Source of the DNA: Acidimicrobiales bacterium
GTDB taxonomy: Bacteria > Actinomycetota > Acidimicrobiia > Acidimicrobiales > Bog-793
DNA length: 64,000 bases
Direction of reading: 5' to 3'
Assembly (NCBI GenBank): GCA_050014835.1
Contig: JBEKCO010000003.1
Coordinates: 733-64,732 of the forward strand
Shown here: piece after piece, positions 1-18,105 of the stretch
Layout: every line of letters starts with the position of its first letter
Position numbering within the stretch: position 1 is the stretch's first letter
Made by a program: the position numbers and the translations under genes
The notes under the pieces: model-generated
Told to the model about the DNA's origin: nothing
The model's input: only the letters and a program-made list of their open reading frames with translations
Database searches by the model: none

Positions 1-943
1 ATCCCGGTCGCCGCCTCGAGATGGGCCGCCCCGCGTCGGTCCGGTGCCAGCCCGACGACCCGGCCGCCGCGCTCGTGTGCCGCGAGGGCCGCGGCACGCA
101 CCATCGCCAGGGCGCGGAGCGGATCCGTCTCGGAATCCGTCCCGACGACACCGGAAAGCGCGATACCCGTCCCGCCGAGGACCGGAGCCGAGTCCATCAG
201 CGTCGCGAGATGCTCGGTGAGCGCTGCGACCTCCCTCGTCTCGAATCGGGTCTCGATCAGACCGCCGGGGATGCGCCCGCCTCCGGCGGCCCGCAGCAGG
301 AGGGATCGCTCCCCGCAGGCGACGACCTCGCCCGAGCCCAGATGGGCGTCGACGGCGGCTTCGACGCGCCCGGCGGGGGCGCCGTCGACGAGGCGCGAAC
401 AGGTCGCTCGGATCAGCTCGCGCCGGTCGAACGCCCGGCCGAGGGAATCGGCGGCGATCCCGACGCGTGCCTCGACCTCCTGGTCGCGGTCGACCCCGGC
501 CATCGCGCCGCGCACGGCGCCCCTGTCGAGCCGGGAGACCGCCGTGCGCGACACACCGAACGAGAATGCTCGTTCGCGCCAGGCGGCGACGAGCGTCGGG
601 TAGTCGCCGCCGAGATCCTTTGGCGCGCGGGTGCGGTTCGCGGCAAGACGCGCCGAGTACGGCCCGGACCGCCCCGTCCGGGCGAGCTCGGCGGCGATCT
701 CCGCGCTCCGGCGGGAGAACCCCCGCAGCGCCGCCGCCGGAATGCCGATGAGGTCCGCGAAGCCCTCGGCGCGCGTCTGCCAGTCGACCGACAGCCGCCG
801 AGAGATCTCGTGCCGCAGCCCGGCGCGGTAGAGCGCGCCGGCCGCCGCGGCGTGCACGAAGAGCGGGCGGGCGTCGATCGCTGACCATCGCCGGTCGGCG
901 TCCGGTGCGAGGTTGGCGATGACGAGATGTGTATGGAGGTGCG
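1..943 (-). pseudogene. TrwC/MobF-family conjugative relaxase, distal fragment of a gene split by the casposon (continues past the left window edge)
   Basis: The minus-strand frame is open from 943 to 1. It is absent from the ORF track because it has no stop in the window. My translation from 943 downward reads PHLHTHLVIANLAPDADRRWSAIDARPLFVHAAAAGALYRAGLRHEISRRLSVDWQTRAEGFADLIGIP... This is the HxH half of the relaxase His-triad plus downstream helices. It joins in frame to 18092..18574. The 21..884 + ORF is its Arg/Gly/Pro-rich antisense shadow. Confidence 0.8.
930..943. repeat. Target-site duplication, left copy (TGTATGGAGGTGCG)
   Basis: The identical 14-mer recurs at 18092..18105, directly abutting the other element terminus. 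A 15th base (G) also matches, but it is equally the first base of the TIR. Confidence 0.85.
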
Positions 944-975
944 GGGATAGGTGATAGCGACGGCGGAAACGTCCG
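944..975 (+). repeat. Casposon left terminal inverted repeat (GGGATAGGTGATAGCGACGGCGGAAACGTCCG)
   Basis: The reverse complement of 18060..18091 is GGGATAGGTGATAGGGCGCGCGGAAACGTCCG. That is 28/32 identical, with the first 14 and last 13 nt perfect. Confidence 0.85.
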
Positions 976-1007
976 CTTTGCTTGGACAGAGTGGTCCCCG
1001 TGACGAG

Positions 1008-2240
1008 CTAAGTGAGAAAGCGGAACCTAGGTAACTGTGGGTTCACGAGACGTACACCCTGCTGGACCTGGAGATCGTCGATCCCATCAAGGCTGAGCGG
1101 ATCATCAAGACGACAGACCTGAATCAGGTTTCCTGCGCTCTCCAACCCGACGCGATGAATGGCGGTCAGCGTCGAGCGCAGGTCGACAGTTGGCTGTTCA
1201 CCAAACCAGAACTTGAGGTCGGGCTCGCTTAGGTCTGGTGCTGGAGTGGTCGCTAAGCGACCGACTGCACCGCCGGAAGGGTTTATCGCCAAGTCGGTCT
1301 TTGACGTTGGTGCAGGGTCATCGCTGACCACGCACTCAGCGTTCCAGCTAGTCGCCAGATCGAAGGCTGCGGTAGACATCCCGCTGGAGTGTCTGATGTA
1401 CCCAAACTGCATGTGAAAAAGGTCGAGGAAGAGGCGACTGAGTCGCTCGAGAGCATCGTTGACTGGGGTCTCGGTGATCGCCGAGTGAGGCAGGAGCACG
1501 GGTCGGCCGAACTTGGAATGGAAGAGAGCCGATCGAGTGCCGACGTAGAGGTCGTTAAACACATCGGTGACCGCGTCATGGGATCCAGTGGGCGCGTAGC
1601 GGCTCAGCGGAAGAGCTGAATCCACCTGCTGCAGGGCACGCTTCAGCCAGACGCCCTCTTTCTCGGTGGGCACTCCCGCGGCCGAGAGAAGTTGAGGGAC
1701 GATGCTGCTCAAGAGTGCCTCGAGCCCTAGATACATGTTGCGGTAGGCATCGAATAGGTCTGACGTGATTTGAGCAAGGCGGAAGTACCGAAGGCTTGGA
1801 TGCCAGACAAGGGAAGGCGGAGGATGTGAGACGACGTTCCCGTCCTTCTCGGTCCAGTACCCGGTCGCCGACCCCTTCATGCCCATGTCGGACACCCCAA
1901 ACAGTCGCGTAACCAGAGATCCGGCGTCGGTCCACCATGCAATGTGGCCACTGTCGGCGCTCTCGATGACCAGATCGGTCATGGCGTGCATCGTGAAACG
2001 ATCGAGTGCTTCTTGTGCAGCTTCGTACGCACGACCGAGCACTGCTGCATAGCTATCGATCGCTGCCGACGCTCGAACGACGATTTGCTGTGAACCCTCG
2101 ACCAGCTCCGCGGACCATCCAGCAGACAGAGCCTCGACGCAGGTGAGACTCGACGCTTGGCTCAGCTGGAACGAACCTCCACAAGCGCTACGCGGTCCGC
2201 TGACCACCAGCACTCTTGGGTCGTTGTCGATGGCAGACAT
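1008..2240 (-). CDS. Hypothetical protein (casposon cargo) with a possible HEPN-like Rx4H motif
   Basis: Long ORF with coding-like composition. The ATG at 2240 is preceded by GAAGGGA (SD-like); the track start at 2261 is an alternative. RSALFH (Rx4H) is encoded at 1518..1535. I recognise no other domain. Confidence 0.55.
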   Translation of the reverse strand: MSAIDNDPRVLVVSGPRSACGGSFQLSQASSLTCVEALSAGWSAELVEGSQQIVVRASAAIDSYAAVLGRAYEAAQEALDRFTMHAMTDLVIESADSGHIAWWTDAGSLVTRLFGVSDMGMKGSATGYWTEKDGNVVSHPPPSLVWHPSLRYFRLAQITSDLFDAYRNMYLGLEALLSSIVPQLLSAAGVPTEKEGVWLKRALQQVDSALPLSRYAPTGSHDAVTDVFNDLYVGTRSALFHSKFGRPVLLPHSAITETPVNDALERLSRLFLDLFHMQFGYIRHSSGMSTAAFDLATSWNAECVVSDDPAPTSKTDLAINPSGGAVGRLATTPAPDLSEPDLKFWFGEQPTVDLRSTLTAIHRVGLESAGNLIQVCRLDDPLSLDGIDDLQVQQGVRLVNPQLPRFRFLT

Positions 2241-2394
2241 TCGAATCCCTTCTGGGCGCAACCAACCTCAGGCATGGCGATCAGAGCGCAGAACGCGACG
2301 CTATTGCAGTTCCGATCGACTCGTGTTGGGCCCGTTCCCACTTTCCAGAGGGGACACGTCCGCCTCGTCCTCGTCATAGCGCGAAACTGGTCGT

Positions 2395-3330
2395 GTGGCC
2401 GATGCGAGACCAACGAAGCGCCTCAGCGACGATGCTTACGACGCTCTCGTCGAAGCTCTCGCAGTCTTCTACTGGTACCGCGCGGACTTCGAAACCTTCG
2501 TACGGGATGCCCTCACGGATGCTCCCGAGATTCTCGCGCGCCTCGATTTCAAGCAGTCGAAGCGGGTCGTGTCTGTCGACATTACGCGCCAACTGCGAGC
2601 AAAGGAGCCCCGCTACCAGGACCTTACGATCGATCTCCTCATGAGGCTTTCGAAGTTCGACGAACACTTCACGAAGCTTTCGAGGCTCGAGGACGGCGGG
2701 CTGAAAGTCGTCGCCGCTCAGGCTGCGCTGGCCGACGTTAGGCGAGTTGTGGAACGACACTCAGAGATGACCGAAGCTCGTGAGCGCCTCCGGGCGGAGA
2801 TGCGCTCCGAAGCAGAAACAGCGTCGCTTCGTCGAACCCATGAGTCGCTCCTCGAGAAGTTGAGACTGTCCTTCATCGAGTTACGGGGTTTGGAGGATGC
2901 CCACGAGCGCGGTCGAAAACTGGAGAAGCTTGTCAATGGCGTCTTCGAGCTGTTCGAACTGGAACCTCGAGCAGCGTACGACCTCGAGCACGAACAGATA
3001 GATGGCGCATTCACGTTTGACACCGATGACTACCTGCTCGAGGTGAAATGGTGGGCAGAGGCTCTCCAACCAGCACAGCTGCACATCCTCAAGGGCAAGA
3101 TTGAGACGAAGGCGAAGCATGTCTTCGGCCTTTTCTTAGCGATCAATGGATTTACTACCGGTGCTATCGAGGCTTACTCGCACGGAACGCCGCTCATCCT
3201 CATGGATGGAATGGACTTATACGCTGTTCTTGAAGGCCGGATCTCTCTGCGTGAGGTCCTTCAACGCAAGCGACGGTTTGCCGCAGAGACAGGAGTGCCG
3301 ATGCTGCCTGTTTCGACGATGCTCGAGTAA
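2395..3330 (+). CDS. Mrr-cat/PD-(D/E)xK restriction-endonuclease-like protein with an unknown coiled-coil N-terminal domain
   Basis: The C-terminal half reads ERGRKLEKLVNGVFELFELEP...IDGAFTFDTDDYLLEVKWW...GLFLAINGFTTGA. This matches the Mrr_cat pattern (G..FE..., D...(D/E)xK, trailing hydrophobic strand). The N-terminal ~170 aa are helical, Arg/Glu-rich and unassigned. Confidence 0.6.
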   Translation: MADARPTKRLSDDAYDALVEALAVFYWYRADFETFVRDALTDAPEILARLDFKQSKRVVSVDITRQLRAKEPRYQDLTIDLLMRLSKFDEHFTKLSRLEDGGLKVVAAQAALADVRRVVERHSEMTEARERLRAEMRSEAETASLRRTHESLLEKLRLSFIELRGLEDAHERGRKLEKLVNGVFELFELEPRAAYDLEHEQIDGAFTFDTDDYLLEVKWWAEALQPAQLHILKGKIETKAKHVFGLFLAINGFTTGAIEAYSHGTPLILMDGMDLYAVLEGRISLREVLQRKRRFAAETGVPMLPVSTMLE

Positions 3331-3334
3331 CGAG

Positions 3335-6295
3335 TCAAGCCAGGGCCTCCATCGCCTTTCGGTGTCCGGCGTGCGGCATCGCCCGCCCCTTCAAGATGTC
3401 CCTGGCCCTACGCTCGCTGATCCCGATGGCGTCGGCGACCTTCTTGGATCCCATCGCCTGCAGCTTCGGCAGTGTGATCCTCCGCCACCCGTCATCGTCG
3501 TCGTAGACGGCCAGACGATCGTCCAGCTCCTCGACCGTGACGAGCCCAGCCATCCGCTCCTCGAGCCTGTTCGACTCCTTCCCGATGAGCTTGATCTCTC
3601 CGGCGGTAACTGGCCGGCGCTGGAGCAAGCCCACGGTGCCACGCCCGCAGGGCTCGCCGTCGGGGCCGAGCGCCTTGGCCTCGGGATGGGCGGCGTACTT
3701 CTCGTCGACGTCGCCGTAGGTGTCCACCTTCGGCTGGCCGGATCGGCCAGCGACTGTCGTGATTCGGTACGAACGGCGTTCGGGATGGTGCAGGTCGACC
3801 CAGGAGAGCTTCGACCACCGTGTTGGGTCGGATTCCCACGGTGCGACGAGCCGGAAGCGGTCCCCGGGACCGACACCTGCAGGAGGTGTCACGCCGGCCG
3901 CGCTCAGCATGAAGTTGAACGGCTTGACCTGGTCCGCGTACGGCTTGCCCTCGTTGAAGCGCCGGAACGCCCGGAGCACGGCAGGTGACGTGACAGTCGT
4001 GCGGATCATCGTCGGCCGCGCGAACCATCTCGGCCGCTCGACCGGCAGCCCGAGTGCCTCGTGAAGGATGACGGACCAGATCTGAGGGATCCAACGTGGG
4101 TCCTCGCTCTTTGGGCCGAGGGGGTTCAGGAGCTGGCCGAGGCCATGCTCTGACGGTGGGTGCTCCTCGAGGAAGATTGGCTCGCCAGCCTCGTCGAGGC
4201 GGTACAGCGCGTAGCGCTTGGCCGAGATGGCGAAGCACATCGCCGTCGCCTCGTCCTTGAGGATGCTCGGGACCACCTCCTCGTCGTAGGGGTTGAGGGC
4301 CGCGAAGCGGTGCCGGATGGACTCGACCTGGTCGAAAGACAGGGCGCGAACAGCCTCAGACCCATCGGGAAGGCGCGCCGGGCCTCCGGGGCAGGCCACG
4401 AGGCCTCCTCGCTCGGAGCACACGATCGCCATGGAGTCGGTGTCGCAGAACGCCCAGCTGCCGCCCAAGTCGGTGACGTTGCGCTCCAGCACGGCGAGCA
4501 TGAGCCGCGCAGCTCCAGTGATGCAGGTGGCGAGCGGCGGGAAGCAGTACCGCCCCGGGTCCTCGGGGCCGCTAGCCCAGTCCTCGAAGGGAACCTCGGA
4601 TCGGCCGTAGACGACCATTCGGGCCTGCTTGCCCTTCGGGAGCTCGTCCCGGTTGAACTCGCCCCAGATCCCGAAGGAGCCCGCGTTGGCAACGATCTTG
4701 AGAGCCATCGAAAGGCGCTGCTTCTCTCCCTCGGGGAGGTCGGTCCTGTGCAGGATGCGCTGGCGCTCCTCGACCATCGATCGGAACGGGTCCTCCGCGG
4801 CCGGATCGAGCTGCACGGCTCCCCGCAACTTGACGGAGCGGAGCCTTCTCACCCGGCCCACAGGGACCAGGCGGAAGGCTCTCACAATCTTCGGCGTTTG
4901 ACCGGTGAGCAGCTTCGAGGCGACGCAGTCCGGTATCGAGTACCAGAGCGGCTCGCTCGAGGTCAGCGGGTTGACACCGATTCCCCATGACTGGCCGCCG
5001 TAGGCGGCGCGGACAGGGAGGATGTCGCCATCAGGCTCGACAAGCACGAAACCGACCAGCTGGGGCCAGAGGTCCTGCTCGACGGTGTCCTCCAGCGTCA
5101 CGCGCTCGAGCAGCTCCGCGACCTCCGAGGTCGCGTCCACAACTCTGACCTGCTCGGCGGTGCGAAAGCGGTGGAGGTCCATGAGCGCCCCGACGGTTGG
5201 GTACATCGAGGTGAAGTCGGTGAGCTTCACGGGGACTGGGACGCGGCGGATCCGGCATTCGGCCCTGCCGCCGAAGAACGTGGACATGGCGTAACCGAGA
5301 TCCTCGCGGGAGAAGTCCGGCTGGCGGTCGAGAATCGGCAGCAGGCCCATGGCGTTGAGGTAGGCCTTTGCCATCGAGGCAGGAGAGTAGGCGCGCTCGG
5401 GCGAGATGGTGACCGGGTGACGCTCGAACTCGGCGTTGAGCGCCATATAAAGGCCAAAGGTCGCGGCGGCGTCCTGGCGGCAGTAGTCGATGTACTTCTC
5501 GGTGATCTTCCCGTGGCCTCCGGGGTTGTCCTTGCCTTGGACGCCGAAGGCATCACACGCGTCTTGGAGGCTGTAAGCAATTCCCGTGAGGGCGAAGGCG
5601 AGCGTTCTCAGGTCGAGGAAACGCCCCCGCCAGGCGTAGCCGGGGTCGGGCTTCTGGTCCCTGGAGCCGTCGGGGATCAGGTCGACAAGGTCGGGCTCTA
5701 CAGGCTTGGTGAAGGACATGAACGCGAGCTTCGAGTTGGCGTGCTTGATGTCGACCCTGGGCCGGTGGCGGCGCTCCTTGTGAGGCGTGCCCGCCTTGCC
5801 CGGCGCGAGGACCAGGGAGAACCCGCCACGGTTCATGCGGCGTCCCTCGCTGGCCCTGATCGCCAGCCTCGACAGATCGAAAGGGAGGTTGAAGCCGACG
5901 ACCAGGTCACGACCCCCGTAAGCGGCTGAGAAGAAGACCCTCTCCACGAACTTGGACTGCGACAACAGCCGGATTCGCCGTTGCCTGCCTGTGCCGAGGA
6001 GGGTGGAGCGCTTGGCCACATAGCGCTGCAGCTCCGCGTAGCCTCCGGGGTCTCGCTCAGGAAGGACGTCGGCATAGAAGAGCCCCTCATCGATGAGCAT
6101 CGGCCCGTCGGGATCGAGGCGGTAGTAGCGCCAGGCGCCGAACTTGAGCGCCTGGGCGTAGTCCGTCGTGGTCTCCGTGTCGAACACGAGGACACCTGGC
6201 CGGACGGTGTGCCGATGGTCGGGACGCGAGCGTCGCTTGGTGTCGACCCGCTCCGTCCAGACGCGGTGCGCGATGGGAAGCCTCGGATCGGTCAT
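3335..6295 (-). CDS. polB: Family B DNA polymerase (casposon PolB), 986 aa
   Basis: Exonuclease motifs: Exo I VLVFDTET, Exo II GFNLPFDLSRL, Exo III YCRQDAAAT. Polymerase motifs: A DFTSMYPT, B KIVANAGSFGIWG, C FCDTDS (DTD encoded at 4436..4444) and KxY AISAKRYAL. About 265 aa of C-terminal extension end in an HTH-like segment (KKVADAIGISERRARDIL). Confidence 0.9.
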   Translation of the reverse strand: MTDPRLPIAHRVWTERVDTKRRSRPDHRHTVRPGVLVFDTETTTDYAQALKFGAWRYYRLDPDGPMLIDEGLFYADVLPERDPGGYAELQRYVAKRSTLLGTGRQRRIRLLSQSKFVERVFFSAAYGGRDLVVGFNLPFDLSRLAIRASEGRRMNRGGFSLVLAPGKAGTPHKERRHRPRVDIKHANSKLAFMSFTKPVEPDLVDLIPDGSRDQKPDPGYAWRGRFLDLRTLAFALTGIAYSLQDACDAFGVQGKDNPGGHGKITEKYIDYCRQDAAATFGLYMALNAEFERHPVTISPERAYSPASMAKAYLNAMGLLPILDRQPDFSREDLGYAMSTFFGGRAECRIRRVPVPVKLTDFTSMYPTVGALMDLHRFRTAEQVRVVDATSEVAELLERVTLEDTVEQDLWPQLVGFVLVEPDGDILPVRAAYGGQSWGIGVNPLTSSEPLWYSIPDCVASKLLTGQTPKIVRAFRLVPVGRVRRLRSVKLRGAVQLDPAAEDPFRSMVEERQRILHRTDLPEGEKQRLSMALKIVANAGSFGIWGEFNRDELPKGKQARMVVYGRSEVPFEDWASGPEDPGRYCFPPLATCITGAARLMLAVLERNVTDLGGSWAFCDTDSMAIVCSERGGLVACPGGPARLPDGSEAVRALSFDQVESIRHRFAALNPYDEEVVPSILKDEATAMCFAISAKRYALYRLDEAGEPIFLEEHPPSEHGLGQLLNPLGPKSEDPRWIPQIWSVILHEALGLPVERPRWFARPTMIRTTVTSPAVLRAFRRFNEGKPYADQVKPFNFMLSAAGVTPPAGVGPGDRFRLVAPWESDPTRWSKLSWVDLHHPERRSYRITTVAGRSGQPKVDTYGDVDEKYAAHPEAKALGPDGEPCGRGTVGLLQRRPVTAGEIKLIGKESNRLEERMAGLVTVEELDDRLAVYDDDDGWRRITLPKLQAMGSKKVADAIGISERRARDILKGRAMPHAGHRKAMEALA

Positions 6296-6729
6296 TTGAT
6301 CCCGGGAAGACCCCGCCAGGGGGGAAGGTGCTCGTCCAGGGATCGCACCACGCCCGCGACCTCATCAGCCCAGCGTTGGAACGAGTCCGCAAGTTGGCGG
6401 AAGAAGGCCGCGAGGGAACGCATGGCGAGGGCGAGTCGCTCCAAGCAGGTTGGGGCACGGCCGGCGGGGAGCGCACCCACGTCTTGCTGGGCAGCCGTCG
6501 CCTTCGCGTGGCAGTTGCAGCAGACCACGACTTCTACTTCTTGGTCGTTCGCCTCACCGAGGGGATGGTGCGCCTGCAGGAGCTTGCGAGTCGATCGCCG
6601 AGCGGTGGTCTTGCGAAGCACGGTTGGATCGGTCTCGCCACATAGGGCGCATGCCGCATCCGGGGGCAGCGGTCGGGCTCTTTTCCTTCGGCGAACCTCG
6701 TTCTGGATTGGATCTGGATCTTGAATCAT
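6292..6729 (-). CDS. HNH endonuclease-like protein
   Basis: The ATG at 6729 is preceded by AAAGGAA. The sequence CALCGETDP...LQAHHPLGE...VVCCNCHAKAT gives a CxxC...HH...CxxCH layout typical of HNH. Its stop overlaps the polB start by 4 nt. The N-terminal 76 aa of the track ORF were rejected because they overlap the upstream gene. Confidence 0.65.
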   Translation of the reverse strand: MIQDPDPIQNEVRRRKRARPLPPDAACALCGETDPTVLRKTTARRSTRKLLQAHHPLGEANDQEVEVVVCCNCHAKATAAQQDVGALPAGRAPTCLERLALAMRSLAAFFRQLADSFQRWADEVAGVVRSLDEHLPPWRGLPGIK

Positions 6730-6739
6730 TTCGTTCCTT

Positions 6740-7267
6740 TCATGGTCCCGTGATGTAGATGTCGTCAATGTCGATCTCGCCACGCCGGAGGAACTCCTCG
6801 ACCTGGTCAGGATCTGTCGCCAACACGGCCCCGCCGACGCGTTTGCCCGCAAAGGGCGTGAGCACTCCAACGTCGCCCGTGGCTGCGAATCGCTGGATGG
6901 CGTTCCAGTGCCGGCCGACTGCCGAGCGGGCCTGAGACCCTCTGACGTCGACGTCAACGACTCCGTCGCTCGAGAGCACGCTCATGCGCTGGAAGCTGCG
7001 ATCCGAGGGAGTGGGCACATAGCGTTGCCCTTGCCGGACGAGCGAGTCGCCTGCGTAGCGGCGCACGGTCTCTGGCGTCGTGCCGTGCCTCCTCGCCGCG
7101 GTGCGAAGCGAGACCTTCTCGGTTCTCATCGCGCTGAGCGTCTCGAAGGCCTTGTGCCTTGCTTCGCGCTCAGCAGGTCTGAGCCGCTCGTATTCGCTGC
7201 GGCCCCGCACTTTGCGGGGCATAGTGCGCTGGCGATACTCGGCTGAGAAGTCACGGGTGCGGGCCAT
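6740..7267 (-). CDS. Hypothetical protein with a predicted HTH (casposon core operon)
   Basis: 175-aa ORF in the same operon as polB/HNH. The segment VSLRTAARRHGTTPETVRRY looks like an HTH. No family recognised. Confidence 0.5.
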   Translation of the reverse strand: MARTRDFSAEYRQRTMPRKVRGRSEYERLRPAEREARHKAFETLSAMRTEKVSLRTAARRHGTTPETVRRYAGDSLVRQGQRYVPTPSDRSFQRMSVLSSDGVVDVDVRGSQARSAVGRHWNAIQRFAATGDVGVLTPFAGKRVGGAVLATDPDQVEEFLRRGEIDIDDIYITGP

Positions 7268-7275
7268 CGCTTCAC

Positions 7276-7500
7276 TTAGCCGGTTCCGCCGCGTTGAGCT
7301 CCGAGACTGCGACGGCGGGCCAGGTCACGTACGGCCGCGAGTTGCTCGACATCGTCTCGAACCCAGAGCTGACCCAGAGGGGTCATCTCTCTCGGCACGA
7401 GGCGTCCCGATCGTGCAAGCTGCCGTACTCGCTCAGCAGAGATCCCGAGCCGTCGGGCAACCTGTGATGTCGTCATGAGCTGGCTAGATTCGTCAATCAT
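7276..7500 (-). CDS. Small MerR/excisionase-type HTH DNA-binding protein
   Basis: LMTTSQVARRLGISAERVRQLARSGRL is a classic Xis/MerR-like HTH. It is the first gene of the minus-strand core operon and is divergent from the cas1 operon. Confidence 0.6.
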   Translation of the reverse strand: MIDESSQLMTTSQVARRLGISAERVRQLARSGRLVPREMTPLGQLWVRDDVEQLAAVRDLARRRSLGAQRGGTG

Positions 7501-10204: not shown

Positions 10205-10753
10205 TCATGGGTGATTATCCCGAGGTCGCGGTCGCCTGAGTCCTTGGCGGTTCGGGACATTGACGTCGCTCGGTGACTCGGCTTGTGGACGGGCGACTGG
10301 CGGGGTTTTTCCAGGTTGATGCCGTTTTGCGTCTCGGATCGCTCCGGCGACGGTTGCATAGTCGTCTTCGTCGATCGGCACGAGCGTTCGGTGCATCACG
10401 CCGGGCCATTCTCGTTCGCTCCGAATCAACTTGAGCTGTGGGATTAACACTCGAAACGGTACGCCGTGGCGGAGCGGGAGCATGTCCTGGATCGTGATCG
10501 CGCAACTCTTCGCAAATGTCTCTCCTGCGACATCCTGTGTAATGGCCCTTACTGGAGAAGCGATCGTTCCCAGAGCGAGTAGCTGTGACTCATCCAGCGT
10601 CGGGTTGCCGTACGCGCCTCGCGAGGTATAGATCGCGAATCGGTCGCCCTTGTTCAGTTCCTCTGCCTTAACGTGCGCCCGAAAGGCCATGCATTTTTTG
10701 TCCAGTATCCACTTCAGCGCATCAGACTTTCCGATGACGATTAACCAGGGCAT
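10205..10753 (-). CDS. EVE/PUA-like (ASCH-superfamily) domain protein
   Basis: MPWLIVIG...KGDRFAIYTS...LALGTIASPV...VPFRVLIPQLKLI...RTLVPIDEDDYATV follows the EVE-domain pattern (N-terminal W, GD..h.Y.S, conserved beta strands). The tail is disordered and Pro/Arg-rich. Confidence 0.5.
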   Translation of the reverse strand: MPWLIVIGKSDALKWILDKKCMAFRAHVKAEELNKGDRFAIYTSRGAYGNPTLDESQLLALGTIASPVRAITQDVAGETFAKSCAITIQDMLPLRHGVPFRVLIPQLKLIRSEREWPGVMHRTLVPIDEDDYATVAGAIRDAKRHQPGKTPPVARPQAESPSDVNVPNRQGLRRPRPRDNHP

Positions 10754-10820
10754 CGTTCATCTCCGGTCGCGGCTTCGAAAGACTCCAGCGCGAGCAGGAC
10801 ACATCGTCCTGACGGCGGCC

Positions 10821-11708
10821 TCATTCAAGCAACTCCTGTACTTCGGTTGCGGATAAGTCAAGTAGGCCAAGTTGCGCCGCCTTCGCACCTTTGCGGCCCA
10901 ATGCCCAAGGCTTAGGATACATGCCTGTTACGGAGTAATCGGCCCCGTTGTCGCGGAGGAATCTCTGGAGAGGTTGGTACGGAATTCGTTTCAACTTCCC
11001 GAAATTCGTGTCCTCATTGAAGTCGTAACCCTCAGATTCCTTGCGACCGTAGTGCTCGGTGTCGACAGGCAACCCGTTGGATTTCTTGGCCTTGCCGATC
11101 CGGCTCAAGATCGCGGGTGTCTCGAAATCCCCAAACCAGTAGCCGCCAGACACGCGGAGCCGATGGTCACGAGCGCGAATGCATTCGATCATCGAGAAGA
11201 CCGCCAGGTTCGTTATGGTCGGGCAATACAGCTCAGCGTCGTGTCTGTGAGGTTGGAGCTGATACGCGAGGAGCAACATCACGTCGCGGCTGGGGTCAAC
11301 GTTCTTCACTGTGACCTTCTGGGTAAGGCGTGCCGAGGGCTCCCGTCTCGTTTCCGTTACCTTCATCACCGCCTCAGCGGGATCGACGTAGAGCAGTTTC
11401 AACTCCAGCCGCTTCCCCGAAGGTTCGTGGAGGTAGTCCGGATACCCCTCTCTGTCCTTCAGAATGCCCTCGTGCTTGACGAGTCCGAGTGCTCGGAAGA
11501 GTTCCCCTTGGCCTTGAACGATCTTGTCGAGCTGGGGAATGCAGGCATCCATCAACACACCCACAATCGTCCCGATCTGAGACGGTTCGAATCCGATAAG
11601 GATCTCTCGTGGGAGCTTCAGGACCTCGAACTGGACTTCGATAAGGCCCGAAAGCGCGGCGTGCAGGTCGTCGAGCTCCGATTGGGTGATCTCGGGAGCG
11701 ACCGTCAC
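10821..11708 (-). CDS. Putative Type II restriction endonuclease (PD-(D/E)xK)
   Basis: YPDYLHEPSGKRLELKLLY provides a PD...ExK motif. The GTG start at 11708 overlaps the stop of the upstream controller gene (GTGA). The gene is divergent from the M/S genes. The track's 5' extension to 11846 overlaps the C gene and was rejected. Confidence 0.55.
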   Translation of the reverse strand: MTVAPEITQSELDDLHAALSGLIEVQFEVLKLPREILIGFEPSQIGTIVGVLMDACIPQLDKIVQGQGELFRALGLVKHEGILKDREGYPDYLHEPSGKRLELKLLYVDPAEAVMKVTETRREPSARLTQKVTVKNVDPSRDVMLLLAYQLQPHRHDAELYCPTITNLAVFSMIECIRARDHRLRVSGGYWFGDFETPAILSRIGKAKKSNGLPVDTEHYGRKESEGYDFNEDTNFGKLKRIPYQPLQRFLRDNGADYSVTGMYPKPWALGRKGAKAAQLGLLDLSATEVQELLE

Positions 11709-12037: not shown

Positions 12038-12091
12038 CCGAGCCGACTGGGCGGCTAACTCCAAATTCGATTATTTCACGGCCCATGACGG

Positions 12092-13468
12092 ATGACGCTC
12101 CGCAGAGCCACACTGAGCTACAATGCCCGGGAGTCGGGAGAACAACGGGAGAACATCTTGGCCAAGCGTCACCATCTTGTGCGGGGCAGCTGGGAGTCGA
12201 TCTTGGGGCGGCTCGAGGAGCTCGTGCTGGCGAACTCCGGAGAGGACGAGTTCCAAGAGATCTTCAAGCTGCTCCTCGCGAAAGTTTACGCCGAGAGCCA
12301 CCATCAGTCGGAGGGTCTGTTCGCAACCGCGAAGACACCCGAGCAGACCGCTCGAAACATCGATGACTTGTTAGGTCTTGCTGCCCGGCAATGGAAGGGT
12401 GTCCTCGAGGACGCCCCAACGATGCGGCTACGACCAGATCACATTGCGGTTTGCGTCGAAGCAATTGAACATGTCGGACTTCTCGACTCGAACCTCGAAG
12501 TCTTGGATGCGCTATTCGAGGATTTGATGAGTAAGTCATCGAAGGGAGCAAAGGGCCAGTACTTTACGCCTCGCTACGTCGTCGACTGCTGCGTAAAGCT
12601 CGTAGACCCAAAGCCCTCCGAGACTGTGATGGACCCCGCTTGCGGCTCCGCCGGCTTCCTGATTCACACGCTCACTTATGTCAAAGAGCAGAATCCGAGT
12701 CTCGATTTGAAGGAGTATGCACGATCGCGAGTCTGGGGTGCGGACTTCGACCCGCGGGCGATTCAAGTAGCTCGGGCACTTATGCTCGTAGTTGGTGACG
12801 GCCACAGCAACTTGCTGCGGATCAACAGTCTCCTGACGCCGACCGCGGCGCCTGATCTGTTCGATAGCACCCCGACGGCCATGAACGAGCCGACTCTCGA
12901 GGACCTGTTGCGGACTCGATGGAGTTCGTTCAGCGGGTTCGACGTAATCATGACTAATCCGCCGTTTGCCGGCGAAGTCCGGGAACCGGAACTTCTCGGA
13001 CGTTACCAATTGGCTCGTAAGTCTGGGCGTACGGAGCGCGACATTCTCTTTCTCGAGCGCTGCTTGTCTCTGCTGCGACCTGGGGGACGGTTAGCAATCG
13101 TTCTTCCTCACAACAAGTTCGCATCCTCGGTTTGGGCTTATGCGCGTCAGTGGCTGATTCAGCGCGCACAGATCGTCGCGGTGTTAGGTTTAGGTCGCTA
13201 CACGTTTCTTCCTCATACAAGCCAGAAGGCAGCAATCCTTTTCCTTCGCAAGCGAGATCACATCGAGCGATCCCCCGATAAAGAGCCGATTCTCTTCCTT
13301 TTGAGCGAACGAGACGGCAAGAATTCGAAAGGCGAAATCATTCCGCGGGGAGGAGTCGCGTTCGACGCTCCCGCCTGGGTGAGAGCGGATCACGACTTGA
13401 GTGAGGTCGTGCCTGTCTTCTCGGAATTCATAGAAGCCAACGGCATCGAGTGGGCAACCCATGGCTAG
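12092..13468 (+). CDS. N6-adenine DNA methyltransferase, HsdM-like (N6_Mtase family)
   Basis: Motifs seen: GQYFTPR, motif I DPACGSAGFL and motif IV NPPF (12956..12967). Confidence 0.85.
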   Translation: MTLRRATLSYNARESGEQRENILAKRHHLVRGSWESILGRLEELVLANSGEDEFQEIFKLLLAKVYAESHHQSEGLFATAKTPEQTARNIDDLLGLAARQWKGVLEDAPTMRLRPDHIAVCVEAIEHVGLLDSNLEVLDALFEDLMSKSSKGAKGQYFTPRYVVDCCVKLVDPKPSETVMDPACGSAGFLIHTLTYVKEQNPSLDLKEYARSRVWGADFDPRAIQVARALMLVVGDGHSNLLRINSLLTPTAAPDLFDSTPTAMNEPTLEDLLRTRWSSFSGFDVIMTNPPFAGEVREPELLGRYQLARKSGRTERDILFLERCLSLLRPGGRLAIVLPHNKFASSVWAYARQWLIQRAQIVAVLGLGRYTFLPHTSQKAAILFLRKRDHIERSPDKEPILFLLSERDGKNSKGEIIPRGGVAFDAPAWVRADHDLSEVVPVFSEFIEANGIEWATHG

Positions 13469-14132
13469 AAGCGCTGTGGTCCGGGTTGCCGACCTGGACT
13501 TTGGCACCGTGCTTGCGCCCGAGCGGTATGACCCCCGGCGACAAGTCGTGAGCGAAGGTATCCCACTGACCGATGTGTGCATGATTGTTCGGGAGAGCGT
13601 CAGCAGCAGCGGCAGGGCCGGGCAGGCTGATCGCCTCTACTACGTGCTCGATACATCCGCGGCTCGGGAGGGGTTTCTCGTCATTGATCGCCCACCAGTG
13701 CCTCGGGCGGACATAGGCAGCCTCAAGAAGCGGGCTCAGGCGCGGGACGTCCTGATTTCGCGCCTTCGCCCTTACCTTCGACAGGTCGCCTACGTGGATG
13801 ATGAGGCGGTGAACTGGGAAGAGGCCGAGCTCGCGTGCAGCACGGAGTTCTACGTTCTTCGTCCACTCGACGGCCGTAGCATCGCTTTCCTAATTCCGTT
13901 CCTTTTGAGCCCGGGGGTTCAGGCTCTCCTCGCGGCATCTCAGGAAGGTGGGCATCACCCGCGCGTCAACGAAGCAACGCTTCGGAGTCTCAGAATCCCA
14001 CGGGACGTGATCGCGACGCGGGCGGAAGCCTCTACCAACTTGGAGCAAGCTGCTGGTGACATGCGCCGTGCTACGCAAGTCGTCGCCAGATTGGTGGCGA
14101 AAGCATCGGAGAGCTGGGTTAACCCTACCTAA
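13461..14132 (+). CDS. Half-size specificity (S) subunit with a single target-recognition domain
   Basis: Overlaps the M gene stop by 8 nt. RDVLISRLRPYLRQV, STEFYVLRP and HHPRVNEATLRSLRIP resemble the Methylase_S (HsdS) TRD plus conserved helix. At 223 aa it is about half of a Type I HsdS. Confidence 0.7.
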   Translation: MARSAVVRVADLDFGTVLAPERYDPRRQVVSEGIPLTDVCMIVRESVSSSGRAGQADRLYYVLDTSAAREGFLVIDRPPVPRADIGSLKKRAQARDVLISRLRPYLRQVAYVDDEAVNWEEAELACSTEFYVLRPLDGRSIAFLIPFLLSPGVQALLAASQEGGHHPRVNEATLRSLRIPRDVIATRAEASTNLEQAAGDMRRATQVVARLVAKASESWVNPT

Positions 14133-14363
14133 GCCCAGACTGCCGCGGGTGCGTGCCCCCGTAATTCAGCACCTGCAAACTGGGGTGTGCCCTAAGTTTC
14201 GTTGATAGTGTCAACCAAACCCGGACCGGACTTGGGCGGCGTGAGCCCAGAATCGACCGTCCGCCGAGCCCCGTCACATCCCTATCTTGACCTGTGAATG
14301 GCCCTCATCGTGTCGACGAGGGCCGAAGGGGCGCTGGGAAGGCGGCTGACGCCCCGGAGGCGG

Positions 14364-14384
14364 CCGACGCCCCGCAGGCGTCGG
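14364..14384. terminator. GC-rich hairpin between convergent cargo modules (possible bidirectional terminator)
   Basis: CCGACGCC-ccgca-GGCGTCGG gives a perfect 8-bp stem. There is no clear U-tract. A second hairpin, GGCCCTC...GAGGGCC, lies at 14300..14324. Confidence 0.25.
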
Positions 14385-14487
14385 AAGGTTCGCAGTGCTG
14401 GGTCGGGGTGGTGATTCTCGCCGTTGTGCTGACGGCAAGCCCGCGAGACGGCTGCCCTATTCAAACGGCAACTTCTCCATCTCGCGG

Positions 14488-15120
14488 CTACAAGGTGCGA
14501 AGAAACTCAATAAGCGGTCGGAATGCGATATGACTCCAGTCGAATACGTGGTTGTCGGCGGCTTCCCCGATCAATCTCTTGCCCTTCGACGCGACCAGAG
14601 CTTGCATCTTCAATTTCGACTCGTGTGCTGCATTCATAGATACCATTCCGGTTATACAGCTAGCGAACGGCTCAACACATCCCATGTGAGGATCGCCGGC
14701 CATGCAGTCGAGGAAGATATCTTCAAAAACGCCATTTCCTGAGTTGTCGGGAGAGATGAAGACAGTCACGTCGGGTGTTCCCCGTGCTCGGCTCAATGGG
14801 GCAGCTGGAACGGATAGGCCTGCAACCTCAAGAGCACCAGTGACATTGGACCACGAAACGGCGAAGCTTTGTTCCGCGTCGCACAGAATGCCAACGGATT
14901 GGACCTCAGAGAAACCACTCGCCTTTCTGGCTACACTCAGCTTCTCACCGAGATTGGTCCTTCCGTGCAGGTCCCGCAGTCCAAGTCCCGAAATCGATTG
15001 GTCTTGCATCAACGCTGCAATCGCTCGAAACTCATCGTCGCCCTCTACAAAGAGCACCTTGCGTTGCGCAGATGCATCACCCCATTTAAGGGTCGACACC
15101 CTATCGGACCTCAAATCCAA
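14488..15120 (-). CDS. TOPRIM-like small protein (DUF4435/DUF3226/RloB-like superfamily)
   Basis: KVLFVEGDDEFRAIAALM is an EG.D motif typical of TOPRIM-like DUF4435/DUF3226 proteins, followed later by FISPDNSGNG. It lies immediately downstream of the ATPase gene. The start is ambiguous: TTG at 15120 overlaps the ATPase gene by 20 nt, while GTG at 15099 sits just after the ATPase stop. Confidence 0.5.
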   Translation of the reverse strand: MDLRSDRVSTLKWGDASAQRKVLFVEGDDEFRAIAALMQDQSISGLGLRDLHGRTNLGEKLSVARKASGFSEVQSVGILCDAEQSFAVSWSNVTGALEVAGLSVPAAPLSRARGTPDVTVFISPDNSGNGVFEDIFLDCMAGDPHMGCVEPFASCITGMVSMNAAHESKLKMQALVASKGKRLIGEAADNHVFDWSHIAFRPLIEFLRTL

Positions 15121-16264
15121 GTTCGAGAGCTTCCCCTAGTTCCTCGGCAGTAAACCCAATGGCCTTAACTGCCTCGCCATCGCGCTCAACACGAAAGACC
15201 CGGAAGTCCTCACCGCTCGGCAACAATCCAGGATCTCGACTGAAATATCGTTGCGCAGCAGCTATACACTCAAGTGAGTGCGTTGTCGCAACCAATTGGA
15301 CTCGGGACTGTCTCGTCGCCTGGTCAAGCGACGCCCAAATGGATTCGAGCACCGAGTAATGAAATCCGTTTTCAATCTCGTCAATTAGCAACAGGCCGTC
15401 GCGTGCCGAAGCGGCGTCAACAAGCAGGGAAGTGAGCTTCTCGGTCCCTTCACCCATAAGCTTCAGCGGCATCTGATGGCCGATGCCGATGTCGCCGTAG
15501 AGCTGAGCACCGATGGGAGTCGCGACAGTCGTGATGTCCTTCAGACGGGGCTCCATCATCTTAAGGCTCTCGACCAATTCTGGAACTTGCTTTTGAACCA
15601 CGAGTTGTCCAAACAGTTGTGCCAATTCGTTAGGGTTCCCATCCGCTCGACTGGGCCGATAGATAGCGGGCATGGTGGCTTGAGGAAGAGCGCCTGACAC
15701 GCGTAGTTGGCCGCTCTGTTCGAAGATTATGTAACCCGTAGTTTGTGGAATCATAAATCCGGACGAAGTTTGCTTCCCTGGGACTTGTAACTCCAAAACA
15801 TGTGGCTGCGCCCCAAAGGCCCATACCTCCGAATCAACAATTGGTTGCCCCGGGAATAGCACAGGAGCAACTTTCTCTTGGATCTCCTGGGCGTCGATGA
15901 GGTTCCTGAGGCGCAAGGTTGACGTTTCCGAATTGTTTGTGGTGATAGCAATTTCGATTGGCTGAGAGACCTCGTATCTGTGAAACCATGCTGCCCAAGG
16001 CGCCTCAACACCGCGCATAAACGGTTGGAAGCCCCAGTTTGGTGAATTTCTGACAGGGGCATTCAGGACCAGCATGAAATTGTTGAACGGCATGTTCTTG
16101 AGCTGCAGAGCTTCAAGGACCGCGGTCTTTCCAACATTGTTTAATCCTGCAATGAGGTTGATTCGGGCCAGAGGCTCAAGGATCAGGTCTTTGAATCCTC
16201 GGAAGTGCGAAATGTTCGCGCGGCGAATGAACCGACCGTCAGTCCCTGACGATTCGAAGGTCAT
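15101..16264 (-). CDS. ABC-type (AAA_21-like) ATPase
   Basis: Walker A is GLNNVGKTAVLEAL and Walker B is LLLIDEIENGFH, followed by VATTHS (H-loop). It is about 390 aa with a long insertion between the two motifs, as in OLD/AriA/RloA-type ATPases. Confidence 0.8.
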   Translation of the reverse strand: MTFESSGTDGRFIRRANISHFRGFKDLILEPLARINLIAGLNNVGKTAVLEALQLKNMPFNNFMLVLNAPVRNSPNWGFQPFMRGVEAPWAAWFHRYEVSQPIEIAITTNNSETSTLRLRNLIDAQEIQEKVAPVLFPGQPIVDSEVWAFGAQPHVLELQVPGKQTSSGFMIPQTTGYIIFEQSGQLRVSGALPQATMPAIYRPSRADGNPNELAQLFGQLVVQKQVPELVESLKMMEPRLKDITTVATPIGAQLYGDIGIGHQMPLKLMGEGTEKLTSLLVDAASARDGLLLIDEIENGFHYSVLESIWASLDQATRQSRVQLVATTHSLECIAAAQRYFSRDPGLLPSGEDFRVFRVERDGEAVKAIGFTAEELGEALELGFEVR

Positions 16265-16483
16265 TGCAAACTCAGTCTCCTACGGAAACAAGGCTTGAAT
16301 TGGCCGAAGTTAGCACCCCCGCGCGTGACCTGCTTGGGCTGCCTGAGCTTTGCGACGAGCCTTCACCATCGCGCACACCGACCGCCGACCTTGCGTGTGC
16401 CTGATCGTCGGCACTGTGCGCTACTCCGACCTATCCGGCCAGCATCCCCGACGACAAGACCGTTGAGTGCCATCCTGGATCAG

Positions 16484-17557
16484 GTGCGAATACGCGGTGG
16501 AGGTCAGCCCCTCTTCAATCGGAGCTCGCGTCACTTGGGGACTCGCGATCGCGTCGGTCGTTTTCCCCGAGACGAGGCTTGGGGTCTGATCTCATCAGTT
16601 GCCCAACGCCTCTGGCCTGCTCTGCTGGGGGTGACGTTCCTACCCACTATTTTCTTTCTGCCCGCTTTCTTCCTGCTACACGGGGCAGCGCGCTGGGTCA
16701 CAGTTGGTGCGGTAGCTATCTCTGGACCATGGATCGTCGCGCTCATCACGATTGTCATGAGCGGTGCATCCGATCTCTTCATGGGCCTTGAATCGGAAGG
16801 TGACACTGCGGATGTTCTACGAAGTCTGCGGCACGACGGCTGGAAGTTGGCGAACGGCATCAAGATTCGGGGAAACCAAGACATCGACCATCTGGTTGTT
16901 GGTCCGGCCGGGCTCTTAGTGGTCGAGACGAAATGGAGTCGACATCGTTGGCCTCTCGGAAAAGACAGCGAACCGTTCATGCGGGATCGCTTGTCCGATG
17001 CCGTGGACCAGCTGCTTCGCAATCGTGAGGATGTCATTACTCAATTCGGCAAAGTCATCAACGGTGCGCCAGTTCGGCCAGTCTGCGTTGTTTGGTCGCC
17101 GGAAGATTCAGCTGGCGATGATCCCTGGGTCGATTTCGACGGCGCCCTCGTCGTTCGCGGACCCGCCCTCAGGTCGTGGCTGCGGACCTTGACTGACGTA
17201 GCACTCGACGAGCGCGGTATTGATCGAGTTTGGCAAGAGGTAACGCTCCACTACGCGCTACGCGACAAAAATGATCGCTCGCGCTCATATCGACCTCGCC
17301 GAACGATTATCAGGGTCGCCGTGGATTGGTTCCTGGCACCATTCCTCGGCTTCGTGTTGGCTTTTTATGGATTGGTGGCCGTTGTCCGCCTTCATCAGTC
17401 ATGGCTTGATATCGCCGGCCCCCTGGTCTTCACGGCAGTTGGTGTTGCGGTACGACGCGTCGCTTTTCTCCGTCGGGTCGCTGTCGGCTGGATCGTAGGC
17501 TCCGTCGGGTCCGTTTTGATTCTCCTGGCCTTTGTCATCCGCGACGTCGTCAGGTAA
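16484..17557 (+). CDS. NERD-domain protein flanked by transmembrane segments
   Basis: GLESEGDTADVLRSLRHDGWKLANGIKIRGNQDIDHLVVGPAGLLVVETKWSRHRW matches the NERD pattern (EGE...W...DIDHLVVGP.G..VVETK). Hydrophobic helices lie before it (LLGVTFLPTIFFLPAFFLL, VTVGAVAISGPWIVALITIVM) and after it (FLAPFLGFVLAFYGLVAVV, GPLVFTAVGVAV, VGSVGSVLILLAFVI). The start is uncertain: GTG at 16484 was chosen, and the track gives TTG at 16295. Confidence 0.65.
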   Translation: MRIRGGGQPLFNRSSRHLGTRDRVGRFPRDEAWGLISSVAQRLWPALLGVTFLPTIFFLPAFFLLHGAARWVTVGAVAISGPWIVALITIVMSGASDLFMGLESEGDTADVLRSLRHDGWKLANGIKIRGNQDIDHLVVGPAGLLVVETKWSRHRWPLGKDSEPFMRDRLSDAVDQLLRNREDVITQFGKVINGAPVRPVCVVWSPEDSAGDDPWVDFDGALVVRGPALRSWLRTLTDVALDERGIDRVWQEVTLHYALRDKNDRSRSYRPRRTIIRVAVDWFLAPFLGFVLAFYGLVAVVRLHQSWLDIAGPLVFTAVGVAVRRVAFLRRVAVGWIVGSVGSVLILLAFVIRDVVR

Positions 17558-17678
17558 CTGGCCAGTGATCCCTCAGCCCACGGACTCAAGCAGCGTCCCA
17601 AGTTGTTCCTCGAAGCCCCGTCGCAGGGGTGCCTCACATCGCCGGCTCGGCGGCCGCCGCGGGGGACGATGAAGTCGG

Positions 17679-18026
17679 TTACTTGGTCGTTCTTCGGCGA
17701 CCGGAAAACCAGACTCGCTGCTGATTTCGATCAACTCGGATGACCTGCCTACCGTTGTCGAGCCAGGCGCGTGCATGCACATGTGTTGTTGCTTTACTTC
17801 GATCGAGCCACCACGCGTCGTAAGTGAACGCCGACATCGGCAATGAGATTCCGAGACGTTCGATCTCGCTGAACGACATTTGGAGAGGGCCGTCGTCGGT
17901 GGAGCTGAGAAATTCATAGAGCGGGTCATACTTGGCCACGCCCGAATCTTGACATGTGCGCCAGTCAACTGGGTCGGCTGTACCCCATAACGATGGGCGG
18001 GCACCTTCTGGTGCCCGGAGCGTCAA
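17679..18026 (-). CDS. Small hypothetical protein (conserved KYDPL...SFSEIE...LP.SA...WW motif family)
   Basis: 115-aa ORF. VAKYDPLYEFLSSTDDGPLQMSFSEIERLGISLPMSAFTYDAWW resembles a widespread uncharacterised domain often found on mobile or defence loci. An alternative GTG start lies at 17939. The gene ends 34 nt inside the right TIR. Confidence 0.45.
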   Translation of the reverse strand: MTLRAPEGARPSLWGTADPVDWRTCQDSGVAKYDPLYEFLSSTDDGPLQMSFSEIERLGISLPMSAFTYDAWWLDRSKATTHVHARAWLDNGRQVIRVDRNQQRVWFSGRRRTTK

Positions 18027-18059
18027 GTGCTTGCTGTTGCGAGCGGCGCACCCCGCTCA

Positions 18060-18091
18060 CGGACGTTTCCGCGCGCCCTATCACCTATCCC
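18060..18091 (-). repeat. Casposon right terminal inverted repeat
   Basis: The reverse complement, GGGATAGGTGATAGGGCGCGCGGAAACGTCCG, matches 944..975 at 28/32 positions. Confidence 0.85.
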
Positions 18092-18105
18092 TGTATGGAG
18101 GTGCG
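18092..18105. repeat. Target-site duplication, right copy (TGTATGGAGGTGCG)
   Basis: Identical to 930..943. On the minus strand it encodes part of PHLHT of the relaxase. Confidence 0.85.

Follow-up and report, generated by a model that had tools for sequence, protein, structure and literature searches.

The first 18 kb of the 64,000-nucleotide stretch of Acidimicrobiales contig JBEKCO010000003.1 analysed here (hereafter the window) very probably carry an intact bacterial casposon of family 3 (AceAut-C1-like), which occupies positions 944-18091 and integrated recently into an Acidimicrobiales-like actinobacterial chromosome by sequence-specific targeting of trwC, the gene of a MOBF relaxase. 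The CRISPR spacer-integration machinery is proposed to descend from casposons. The initial annotation of the window had already read a casposon here, intact and probably recently active, and the tests by which it could have been refuted all spoke for a casposon. The first claim is upheld by the placement of Cas1, the match of its predicted fold to 6opm, the family-B DNA polymerase (PolB), the terminal inverted repeats (TIRs), the target-site duplication (TSD) and the absence of another recombinase among the open reading frames (ORFs) scanned; the second, by full-length genes and an empty allele of the insertion site on contig L097. The target had also been called atypical, and what had gone unnoticed is that the insertion lies in the active-site codons of the trwC relaxase gene. 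The ends of the element and the two parts of its target are:

1..929, minus strand: 3' part of the target gene, encoding the C-terminal region of TrwC (MOBF relaxase) and continuing past the window start
930..943, no strand: left copy of the TSD; the coding (minus) strand of trwC reads CGCACCTCCATACA, that is (C)CG CAC CTC CAT ACA, P-H-L-H-T
944..975, plus strand: left TIR, with an invariant 14-nt terminus, a variable 8-9-nt spacer and an invariant AAACGTCCG box
18060..18091, minus strand: right TIR, the inverted match to 944-975
18092..18105, no strand: right copy of the TSD, the second copy of TGTATGGAGGTGCG
18106..18676, minus strand: 5' part of the target gene, the N-terminal ~190 codons of trwC, with an ETYY tyrosine motif and ending ...TSRAEDPHLHT at the TSD

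The casposon spans 17,148 bp. Its left TIR is GGGATAGGTGATAGCGACGGCGGAAACGTCCG and the right one, as reverse complement, is GGGATAGGTGATAGGGCGCGCGGAAACGTCCG; direct reading confirms the 32-bp repeats with 28/32 identical positions given in the initial annotation, and the pair ranks first (longest and best inverted repeat) within 1-22000. Directly outside both TIRs stands the 14-mer TGTATGGAGGTGCG, of which the 64-kb window holds these two copies only, both strands considered. As a test of chance we produced 100 dinucleotide-preserving shuffles of 1-22000: an inverted 10-nt seed with its copies 6-30 kb apart and a flanking direct repeat of at least 13/14 appeared in none of them (0/100), and once in the real sequence. 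The G+C content changes from 0.72-0.75 in the flanks to 0.54-0.69 within the element. All four TIR mismatches are confined to the 8-9-nt spacer, which differs between the arms in every relative too, and no variation is seen in the terminal 14 nt or the subterminal AAACGTCCG of the window element and its relatives; the TIR is therefore better described as bipartite than as decayed. The 14-nt terminus itself consists of two 7-nt units, GGGATAG GTGATAG, common to L011, L015, L099, L100, L105 and L107, and is of the same length as the TSD (14 bp). In L023 the terminal 7-nt unit is exactly duplicated (GGGATAGGGGATAG).

Removal of 944-18105 restores a single long minus-strand ORF of 710-732 amino acids (aa) that matches TrwC over nearly the full profile (PF08751, E 7e-64). 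A search with this restored protein returned an intact 732-aa version, 100% identical (P0241), and the empty allele that the initial annotation had proposed to look for: contig L097 matches the left flank at 943/943 positions, has one copy of TGTATGGAGGTGCG and continues into the right flank with 99.3% identity over 10.4 kb. Pattern scans of the metagenome contigs at the DNA level (an exact 40-mer and a wobble-degenerate 56-mer) had not found this site. The single 14-mer in a near-identical empty allele shows that the 14-bp repeat, already annotated as a duplication, is a true TSD and that the insertion is recent. The same Cas1 occurs on 24 or more contigs of ENA, JGI and Logan assemblies, with equal context in the ten places shown; since the junctions recur in these assemblies, the element is not an assembly artefact, a doubt that the initial annotation had raised. 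On the coding strand of trwC the TSD covers the P-H-L-H-T codons within HRTSRAEDPHLHTHLVIAN, the histidine-triad motif of the relaxase, and no tRNA gene lies at the insertion site. This position inside trwC departs from the descriptor 'intergenic insertion' of family 3.

The genes between the two cargo arms are:

3335..6295, minus strand: family-B DNA polymerase, 986 aa, intact, recognised by motifs and predicted fold
6292..6729, minus strand: 145 aa, probable nuclease of the HNH (His-Me finger) type, recognised by motif; it belongs to the core and immediately follows PolB
6740..7267, minus strand: conserved core protein, 175 aa, with a weak helix-turn-helix (HTH) signal, in 54/78 related loci
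7276..7500, minus strand: HTH protein, 74 aa, with weak HTH_17/MerR-type matches
7581..8396, plus strand: 271-aa protein, function unassigned, directly upstream of cas1, where relatives have a poorly conserved gene
8467..10026, plus strand (ORF open from 8410): casposase, 519 aa, with a Cas1 domain, a C-terminal CxxC..CxxC zinc module and an HTH-like tail

The casposase matches Pfam PF01867 (E 6e-39) and TIGR00287 (108 bits against a cutoff of 71.7). Across 35 aligned family members residues E172, H255, D267 and E270 never vary, as the annotation of a Cas1 with its catalytic residues implied, and the C-terminal CxxC...CxxC module and the conserved HTH-like tail are found in all of them. The sequence aligns to PDB entries 4n06 and 6opm, and the predicted structure (pLDDT 83) has as its best Foldseek match the M. 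mazei casposase-DNA complex 6opm, with E 2.6e-18 and a TM-score of 0.78. A neighbour-joining tree was built from the Cas1 rows in Additional file 2 of Krupovic 2014 together with the window Cas1 and eight relatives. These nine sequences are sister to AceAut-C1 (bootstrap 87/100), casposon family 3 and the window family are joined at 88/100, and all casposons with the window family at 65/100. The phylogeny, which the initial annotation had left to be done, thus places the window Cas1 among the casposases of family 3, outside families 1 and 2 and apart from CRISPR Cas1. The BLASTP identities run in the same direction: 45% to AceAut-C1, 38% to S. spinosa, 34% to StrAlb-C1, 33% to NitAL212-C1 and 32% to HenMar-C1, against 22-27% to families 1 and 2. 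AceAut-C1, a published member of family 3, also has a Cas1 with a C-terminal zinc-binding domain and an HTH. Judged from its sequence and predicted fold, the window Cas1 is a casposase.

The polymerase was read from its translation, which contains the motifs ExoI FDTET, ExoII NLPFD, ExoIII YCRQD, A DFTSMYP, B KIVANAGSFG and C FCDTDS. It has no match in Pfam (E<=0.01), in NCBIfam, or in the PDB by phmmer or with a 25-sequence profile. Its AlphaFold model (pLDDT 85, pTM 0.81) retrieves family-B polymerases for all of the best 50 Foldseek PDB matches listed, with E from 5e-11 to 7e-9. The complete family-B polymerase of the initial annotation is thus supported by motifs and predicted fold, the DNA_pol_B profiles that it had suggested having returned nothing, and its HNH nuclease is supported by motif and weakly by profiles. 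The motif in question is CALCG..HHPLGEAND..CCNCH, with C27, C30, H55 and H74 invariant and the pattern kept in 20 relatives of the family alignment. A CDTDS motif C is the signature of the 'PolB_CDTDS' group, which includes the PolB of the A. boonei casposon (PMC7544198).

When the window proteins were compared by tblastn with 78 related loci from a genome collection, Cas1 was found in 78, PolB in 57, the 175-aa HTH-like protein in 54 and the HNH-like protein in 31, and each of the others in at most 9. From these counts we delimit a core at about 3335-10026 with a cargo arm on each side. Compared with their homologues, Cas1, PolB and HNH of the window are full-length. No DDE, tyrosine or serine recombinase was detected among the window ORFs scanned (at least 74 aa; Pfam, NCBIfam and PADLOC), no Cas2 match was present among these ORFs (Pfam), and no CRISPR array, which in the initial annotation would have spoken for an adaptation Cas1, was found in the 64-kb window.

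Five relatives whose Cas1 is 63-90% identical to that of the window element are inserted at the same codon register of trwC, in both orientations and with different cargo:

L105 (Cas1 90%): TSD CGCACCTCCATACA, the same as in the window; flanks 99.9% identical to the empty allele; orientation opposite to the window element
L011 (Cas1 89%): TSD CGCACCTCCATACG; orthologous site, same orientation as the window element; host flanks ~90% identical
L015 (Cas1 83%): TSD CCCACCTTCACAGC, P-H-L-H-S; trwC homologue 59% identical, with ABC-permease neighbours; opposite orientation
L100 (Cas1 65%): TSD CGCAGCTGCACACC, ...D-P-Q-L-H-T; right end adjoins the motif, with one junction within the stretch examined
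L107 (Cas1 63%): TSD CACACCTGCACACC; flank on the contig of 15-21 nt only

The TSD always begins at nucleotide 2 of the Pro codon and ends with nucleotide 3 of the Thr/Ser codon in a D-P-[H/Q]-L-H-[T/S]-H motif. The target consensus is CNCASCTNCAYASN, and the adjoining codons (HRTSR upstream, HLVxAN downstream) are conserved in DNA too. A precision of one nucleotide in both orientations would be impossible for random insertion followed by selection, hence the targeting is sequence-specific. The element of L105, with a core of ~90% nucleotide identity to the window element and a different cargo, is an independent insertion at the same site in the same host population. On contig L098, whose flanks are 94-97% identical to those of L011, the site is empty. 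The PolB gene of L011 (3625-6766) is frameshifted into two overlapping frames, corresponding to aa 1-728 and 723-986 of the window protein, and its Cas1 and TIRs are intact; this element may be a decaying or non-autonomous copy.

Several observations weigh against parts of this reading. For two of the five relatives the evidence of targeting is partial, L100 showing a single junction and L107 its very short flank, and the window element and that of L011 could share one old insertion rather than represent two events. The element of L099 (Cas1 84%) adjoins CACAGCTTGGAACC, a sequence similar to the target that is not part of trwC, so that specificity is not absolute. PolB is invisible to sequence profiles, the Foldseek TM-scores of this multidomain protein are only ~0.3, and its subgroup would be assigned from motif C alone. 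The Pfam HNH profile matched in 4/20 family members, with a best E of 0.07. The integration chemistry, the roles of PolB and HNH and the mode of replication would all be those of archaeal casposons, by analogy.

At L099 (1-160), CACAGCTTGGAACC agrees with the L100 site at 9/14 positions and is preceded by similar upstream bases, and the 146-nt flank does not read as trwC; the junction may be an off-target insertion. We also considered trwC targeting as a property of the whole family and rejected it, as 0/78 of the genome-collection loci (Cas1 at most 63% identical) have a trwC fragment nearby. L019 (Cas1 63%) has a different TIR and a different flank.

Other readings of the segment fare worse than a recently integrated casposon. 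It could be a fixed, immobile defence island with a fossil casposon core, whose TIRs and TSD would be the relics of one ancient, vertically inherited insertion; the related element of L011, at the orthologous site in the same orientation, with flanks ~90% identical and a frameshifted PolB, agrees with such a history, and cargo could be turned over by recombination without transposition. However, the empty allele has flanks that are 100% and 99.3% identical, a second element occupies the same host site in the opposite orientation, Cas1, PolB and HNH are full-length, and the TIR ends and TSD of the window element are perfect. The empty allele and the opposite-orientation allele refute a fossil island for the window element, and we regard it as very improbable. 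It is extremely improbable that the segment represents a different type of PolB-bearing element (a pipolin), or a CRISPR adaptation module gone astray beside an unrelated polymerase. The only Pfam hint for the polymerase is a weak, sub-threshold one to PF03175 (protein-primed/organellar PolB, a profile that also detects piPolBs), an annotation carried by some homologues and thus favouring a pipolin, but the element has inverted ends instead of att-type direct repeats and no tyrosine or serine recombinase among the ORFs scanned, PolB has no match in plasmids or phages, and its motif C is CDTDS (PMC7544198); on these grounds we rejected the pipolin. The pairing of Cas1 with PolB in 57/78 related loci and the grouping of Cas1 with casposases speak against both forms of this alternative, and the lack of an array in 64 kb and of a cas2 match among the ORFs scanned against the stray module.

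If the segment is accepted as a casposon, the meaning of its target has still to be weighed. The relaxase targeting could be functional, the casposon either loading onto conjugative elements to spread or disabling conjugative DNA that is incoming or already resident, an anti-plasmid activity that would complement its defence cargo. Among the catalytic motifs of TrwC-family relaxases the target is the most conserved one, insertions are seen in no fewer than three diverged trwC genes (59% to ~100% aa identity) in different neighbourhoods, the cargo is dominated by defence systems, and intact trwC is under purifying selection (dN/dS 0.18-0.42), so that each insertion costs a working gene. On the other hand, the readable trwC copies are chromosomal and syntenic down to 63% TrwC identity, on no plasmid or obvious integrative and conjugative element (ICE), tblastn of Cas1 and PolB found no family member among 72,556 plasmids, and a split relaxase would block transfer in cis. 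We consider such a function unlikely overall, and an adaptive anti-conjugation or hitchhiking role only slightly less so once a casposon is taken as given. Because the visible targets are chromosomal and the plasmids hold no family member, we favour, as the probable explanation within the casposon reading, an incidental use of a conserved attachment sequence. As a tentative possibility, a bacterial casposase lineage may have evolved to read the DNA of the MOBF histidine triad and to insert a 17-19-kb, defence-laden element there in either orientation.

Mechanistically, a casposon of this kind would integrate as archaeal casposases do (6opm, PMC6977970, PMC10359463): the 519-aa casposase would bind both TIR ends and join their 3'-OH groups to target strands 14 bp apart, and repair of the gaps would then generate the 14-bp TSD. 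The polymorphism between empty and filled alleles is indirect evidence for integration by the casposase. By the same analogy, the element would be copied by its own PolB, probably aided by the adjacent HNH nuclease and HTH proteins. The relaxase motif would serve as a conserved, reliably present attachment sequence (CNCASCTNCAYASN with its conserved flanks), probably read by the zinc/HTH module at the C-terminus of the casposase or by HTH partners, and loss of the relaxase would be an apparently tolerated side effect.

The target gene is chromosomal wherever its surroundings are readable. L097, L098 and L102/L103, whose TrwC is 100%, 89% and 63% identical to that of the window, share the order BipA, WYL, PafC-WYL, trwC, a convergent coupling protein (T4CP) of the type IV secretion system (T4SS) and housekeeping genes. 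A location of trwC on a plasmid or ICE was rejected for the copies with visible context, as trwC-T4CP remains syntenic between housekeeping genes down to 63% identity. In TrwC, the ETYY tyrosines at the N-terminus and the histidine triad are present, but a helicase domain is not recognisable. Its dN/dS is 0.18-0.42 across the comparisons made (0.23-0.37 for the whole gene), indicating purifying selection, and the casposon appears from these sequence data to knock out a conserved, functional but evidently dispensable gene. In these Acidimicrobiales hosts trwC and T4CP form a two-gene module (window 1-929 and 18106-20582; L097 7993-13481; L098; L102/L103) that lies beside a pafB/pafC-like WYL pair, with no T4SS visible.

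The cargo of the window element consists of:

1008..2240, minus strand: left arm, 410-aa protein, function unassigned; no Pfam, NCBIfam or PADLOC match, absent from relatives
2395..3330, plus strand: left arm, Mrr_cat-type restriction endonuclease-like protein, 311 aa (PF04471, E 5e-7)
10205..10753, minus strand: right arm, 182-aa protein with a weak, below-cutoff PRK00809-like match
10821..11708, minus strand: right arm, 295-aa protein, function unassigned, adjoining methylase/specificity genes
12092..14132, plus strand: right arm, N6-adenine methyltransferase (HsdM-like, 12092-13468) and half-size specificity subunit (13461-14132)
14488..16264, minus strand: right arm, AbiL-like / PDC-M38 two-gene defence pair, with a DUF3226 protein (14488-15099) and an AAA_21/AAA_15 ATPase (15101-16264)
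16295..17557, plus strand: right arm, membrane-anchored NERD nuclease-related protein
17679..17939, minus strand: right arm, DUF7662 protein, 86 aa, a gene called in L003, L004 and L008

The arms thus hold mostly defence genes (the Mrr-like nuclease, the HsdM/HsdS-like methylase, the AbiL-like pair, which matches PADLOC AbiLi with E 1.5e-49 and PDC-M38B, and the NERD protein) together with three unassigned proteins. From its position, the 295-aa protein may be a nuclease partner of the adjacent methylase. Close relatives with cores 80-90% identical carry wholly different arms, and cargo arms are swapped wholesale between them: type I restriction-modification, NYN and pP_pnuc_1 in L011; GmrSD, HEPN and ResIII with a methyltransferase in L105; GmrSD, HEPN, McrBC and DUF87 in L099; MmeI, NERD, DUF4917 and E1/E2/JAB in L100; HNH and an ion channel in L015. 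Outside the casposon, the window encodes a 704-aa protein without a Pfam match (41938-44052) near a 1024-aa AAA_27/SMC-like ATPase (44915-47989), perhaps a defence-type pair.

The initial annotation had stated that only a few bacterial casposons are described; the window element is no rarity, and its Cas1/PolB pair belongs to a large soil-bacterial family. Protein searches gave 885 Cas1 and 3,908 PolB relatives at E<=0.001 among the candidates scored, almost all of them unnamed or 'hypothetical', and a genome scan gave 204 Cas1 matches and, from the genome collection, the 78 related loci analysed. These loci are found in Acidimicrobiales, Thermoleophilia/Gaiellaceae, Chloroflexota, Gemmatimonadota, Acidobacteriota, Eremiobacterota and others, including the cultured Acidobacteriota Granulicella sp. 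L46 (L070) and, in their chromosomes, Tunturiibacter lichenicola MP8S11 (L074) and T. psychrotolerans X4BP1 (L075); TIRs are delimited in L070 and L075, with TSDs of 14 bp. Both ends could be delimited in 17 genome-collection loci, whose TIRs start with GGG (often GGGATAGGnGATAG) and of which 15 have a 14-bp TSD. With L011 and L015, 17 of 19 delimited family members have a TSD of this length.

Many of the TSDs start with GTCAA or end with TTGAC (L023, L030, L031, L045, L060, L063, L072, L075, L082 and L091). In four cases (L075 13993/14092, L028 956/981, L032 19875/19901 and L071 1570/1632) a tRNA gene (Gln, Glu, Glu and Trp) follows the element at a distance of ~25-100 bp, so that the element is upstream of it, and the other delimited loci are mostly at gene ends or between genes. 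This distribution suggests that other clades target promoter (-35-like) regions, and not tRNA 3' ends as archaeal casposons do. A second copy of Cas1, or an additional fragment of PolB, lies within 10 kb in L036 (800-2302, 10299-11816), L057 (8822-9799, 10001-11101), L047 (14446-14808) and L064 (19705-20001), which suggests tandem or nested casposons such as those described for Methanosarcina.

The window element resembles family 3 casposons (PMC4046053, PMC4779613), which likewise have a Cas1 with a zinc and HTH C-terminus, TIRs, TSDs of 14-15 bp (14 bp in NitAL212-C1, 15 bp in AceAut-C1), a length of 12-20 kb and a cargo of methyltransferases and nucleases; a PolB of the CDTDS type and a core with HNH-like and HTH proteins are probably shared too, to judge from motif C, the HNH-like pattern and weak HTH matches. 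Published members of the family are all described as intergenic (PMC4779613), whereas the window clade splits a protein-coding gene in its catalytic motif, in one register, repeatedly and in both orientations. In addition, its cargo arms are largely made of defence systems, and its TIR is short and bipartite, 32 bp against the 602 bp of AceAut-C1. Empty and filled alleles are available here at the population level, whereas the reported evidence of mobility that we found concerns archaeal casposons only. In the literature searched we found no report of a casposon in a relaxase gene, or in these phyla.

The family 2 casposons of M. mazei and A. boonei, whose integration is documented in vitro and in vivo, also rely on a single-protein Cas1 integrase with sequence-specific choice of target, a TSD of ~14-15 bp, reuse of sites and a PolB/HNH/HTH core, but their hosts are archaeal, their Cas1 is 25-27% identical, the casposase lacks the zinc module, and their targets (tRNA gene 3' ends or intergenic sites) leave the gene intact, unlike the insertion in the window. 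Tn7-like elements (attTn7/glmS via TnsD; plasmids via TnsE) likewise use a highly conserved coding sequence as recognition element for one preferred chromosomal site and carry variable cargo including defence, but they work with DDE/TnsABC machinery and a 5-bp TSD; Tn7 inserts downstream of glmS and spares the gene, whereas the window insertion lies inside the recognised motif and destroys trwC. Pipolins (PMC5695915, PMC11551731) share a PolB gene, a small core and a large, fast-changing defence cargo, and differ by their tyrosine recombinases, tRNA genes and direct repeats, none of which is found at the window element. Unlike a CRISPR adaptation module, the window Cas1 has no array within the 64 kb and no Cas2 match among the ORFs scanned, and it falls outside the CRISPR clades.

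Taken globally, the window element belongs to casposon family 3; its class of target is new, and its recent mobility is clearly documented. Mechanistic and mobility evidence for casposons comes nearly all from a few archaeal elements, and the bacterial ones listed in the literature consulted are a handful. One natural population holds an empty site, a filled site and an opposite-orientation relative, which shows directly that site-specific casposition has taken place in bacteria recently and more than once. The target is of a new class: the insertion interrupts a coding sequence at the codons for the active site of a relaxase, and the gene is lost. The clean target consensus offers a handle on the reading of DNA by a Cas1-family integrase that carries a zinc/HTH extension, a question that bears on how CRISPR Cas1 came by its leader-repeat specificity. 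Should the targeting be adaptive, these elements would act on conjugation genes either as natural, sequence-specific 'gene-drive-like' disruptors that need a single protein, or as hitchhikers. In that case the wider family, with its hundreds to thousands of members, its 14-bp TSDs and its clade-specific targets, among them sites a short way upstream of tRNA genes where the TSD contains TTGAC, would also provide many retargetable and as yet untapped Cas1 integrases for insertions on the kilobase scale. The cultured Granulicella and Tunturiibacter carriers are possible experimental hosts. For the bacteria themselves, the family, abundant in Actinomycetota, Chloroflexota, Acidobacteriota and Gemmatimonadota, behaves as a vehicle for rapidly exchanged defence systems.

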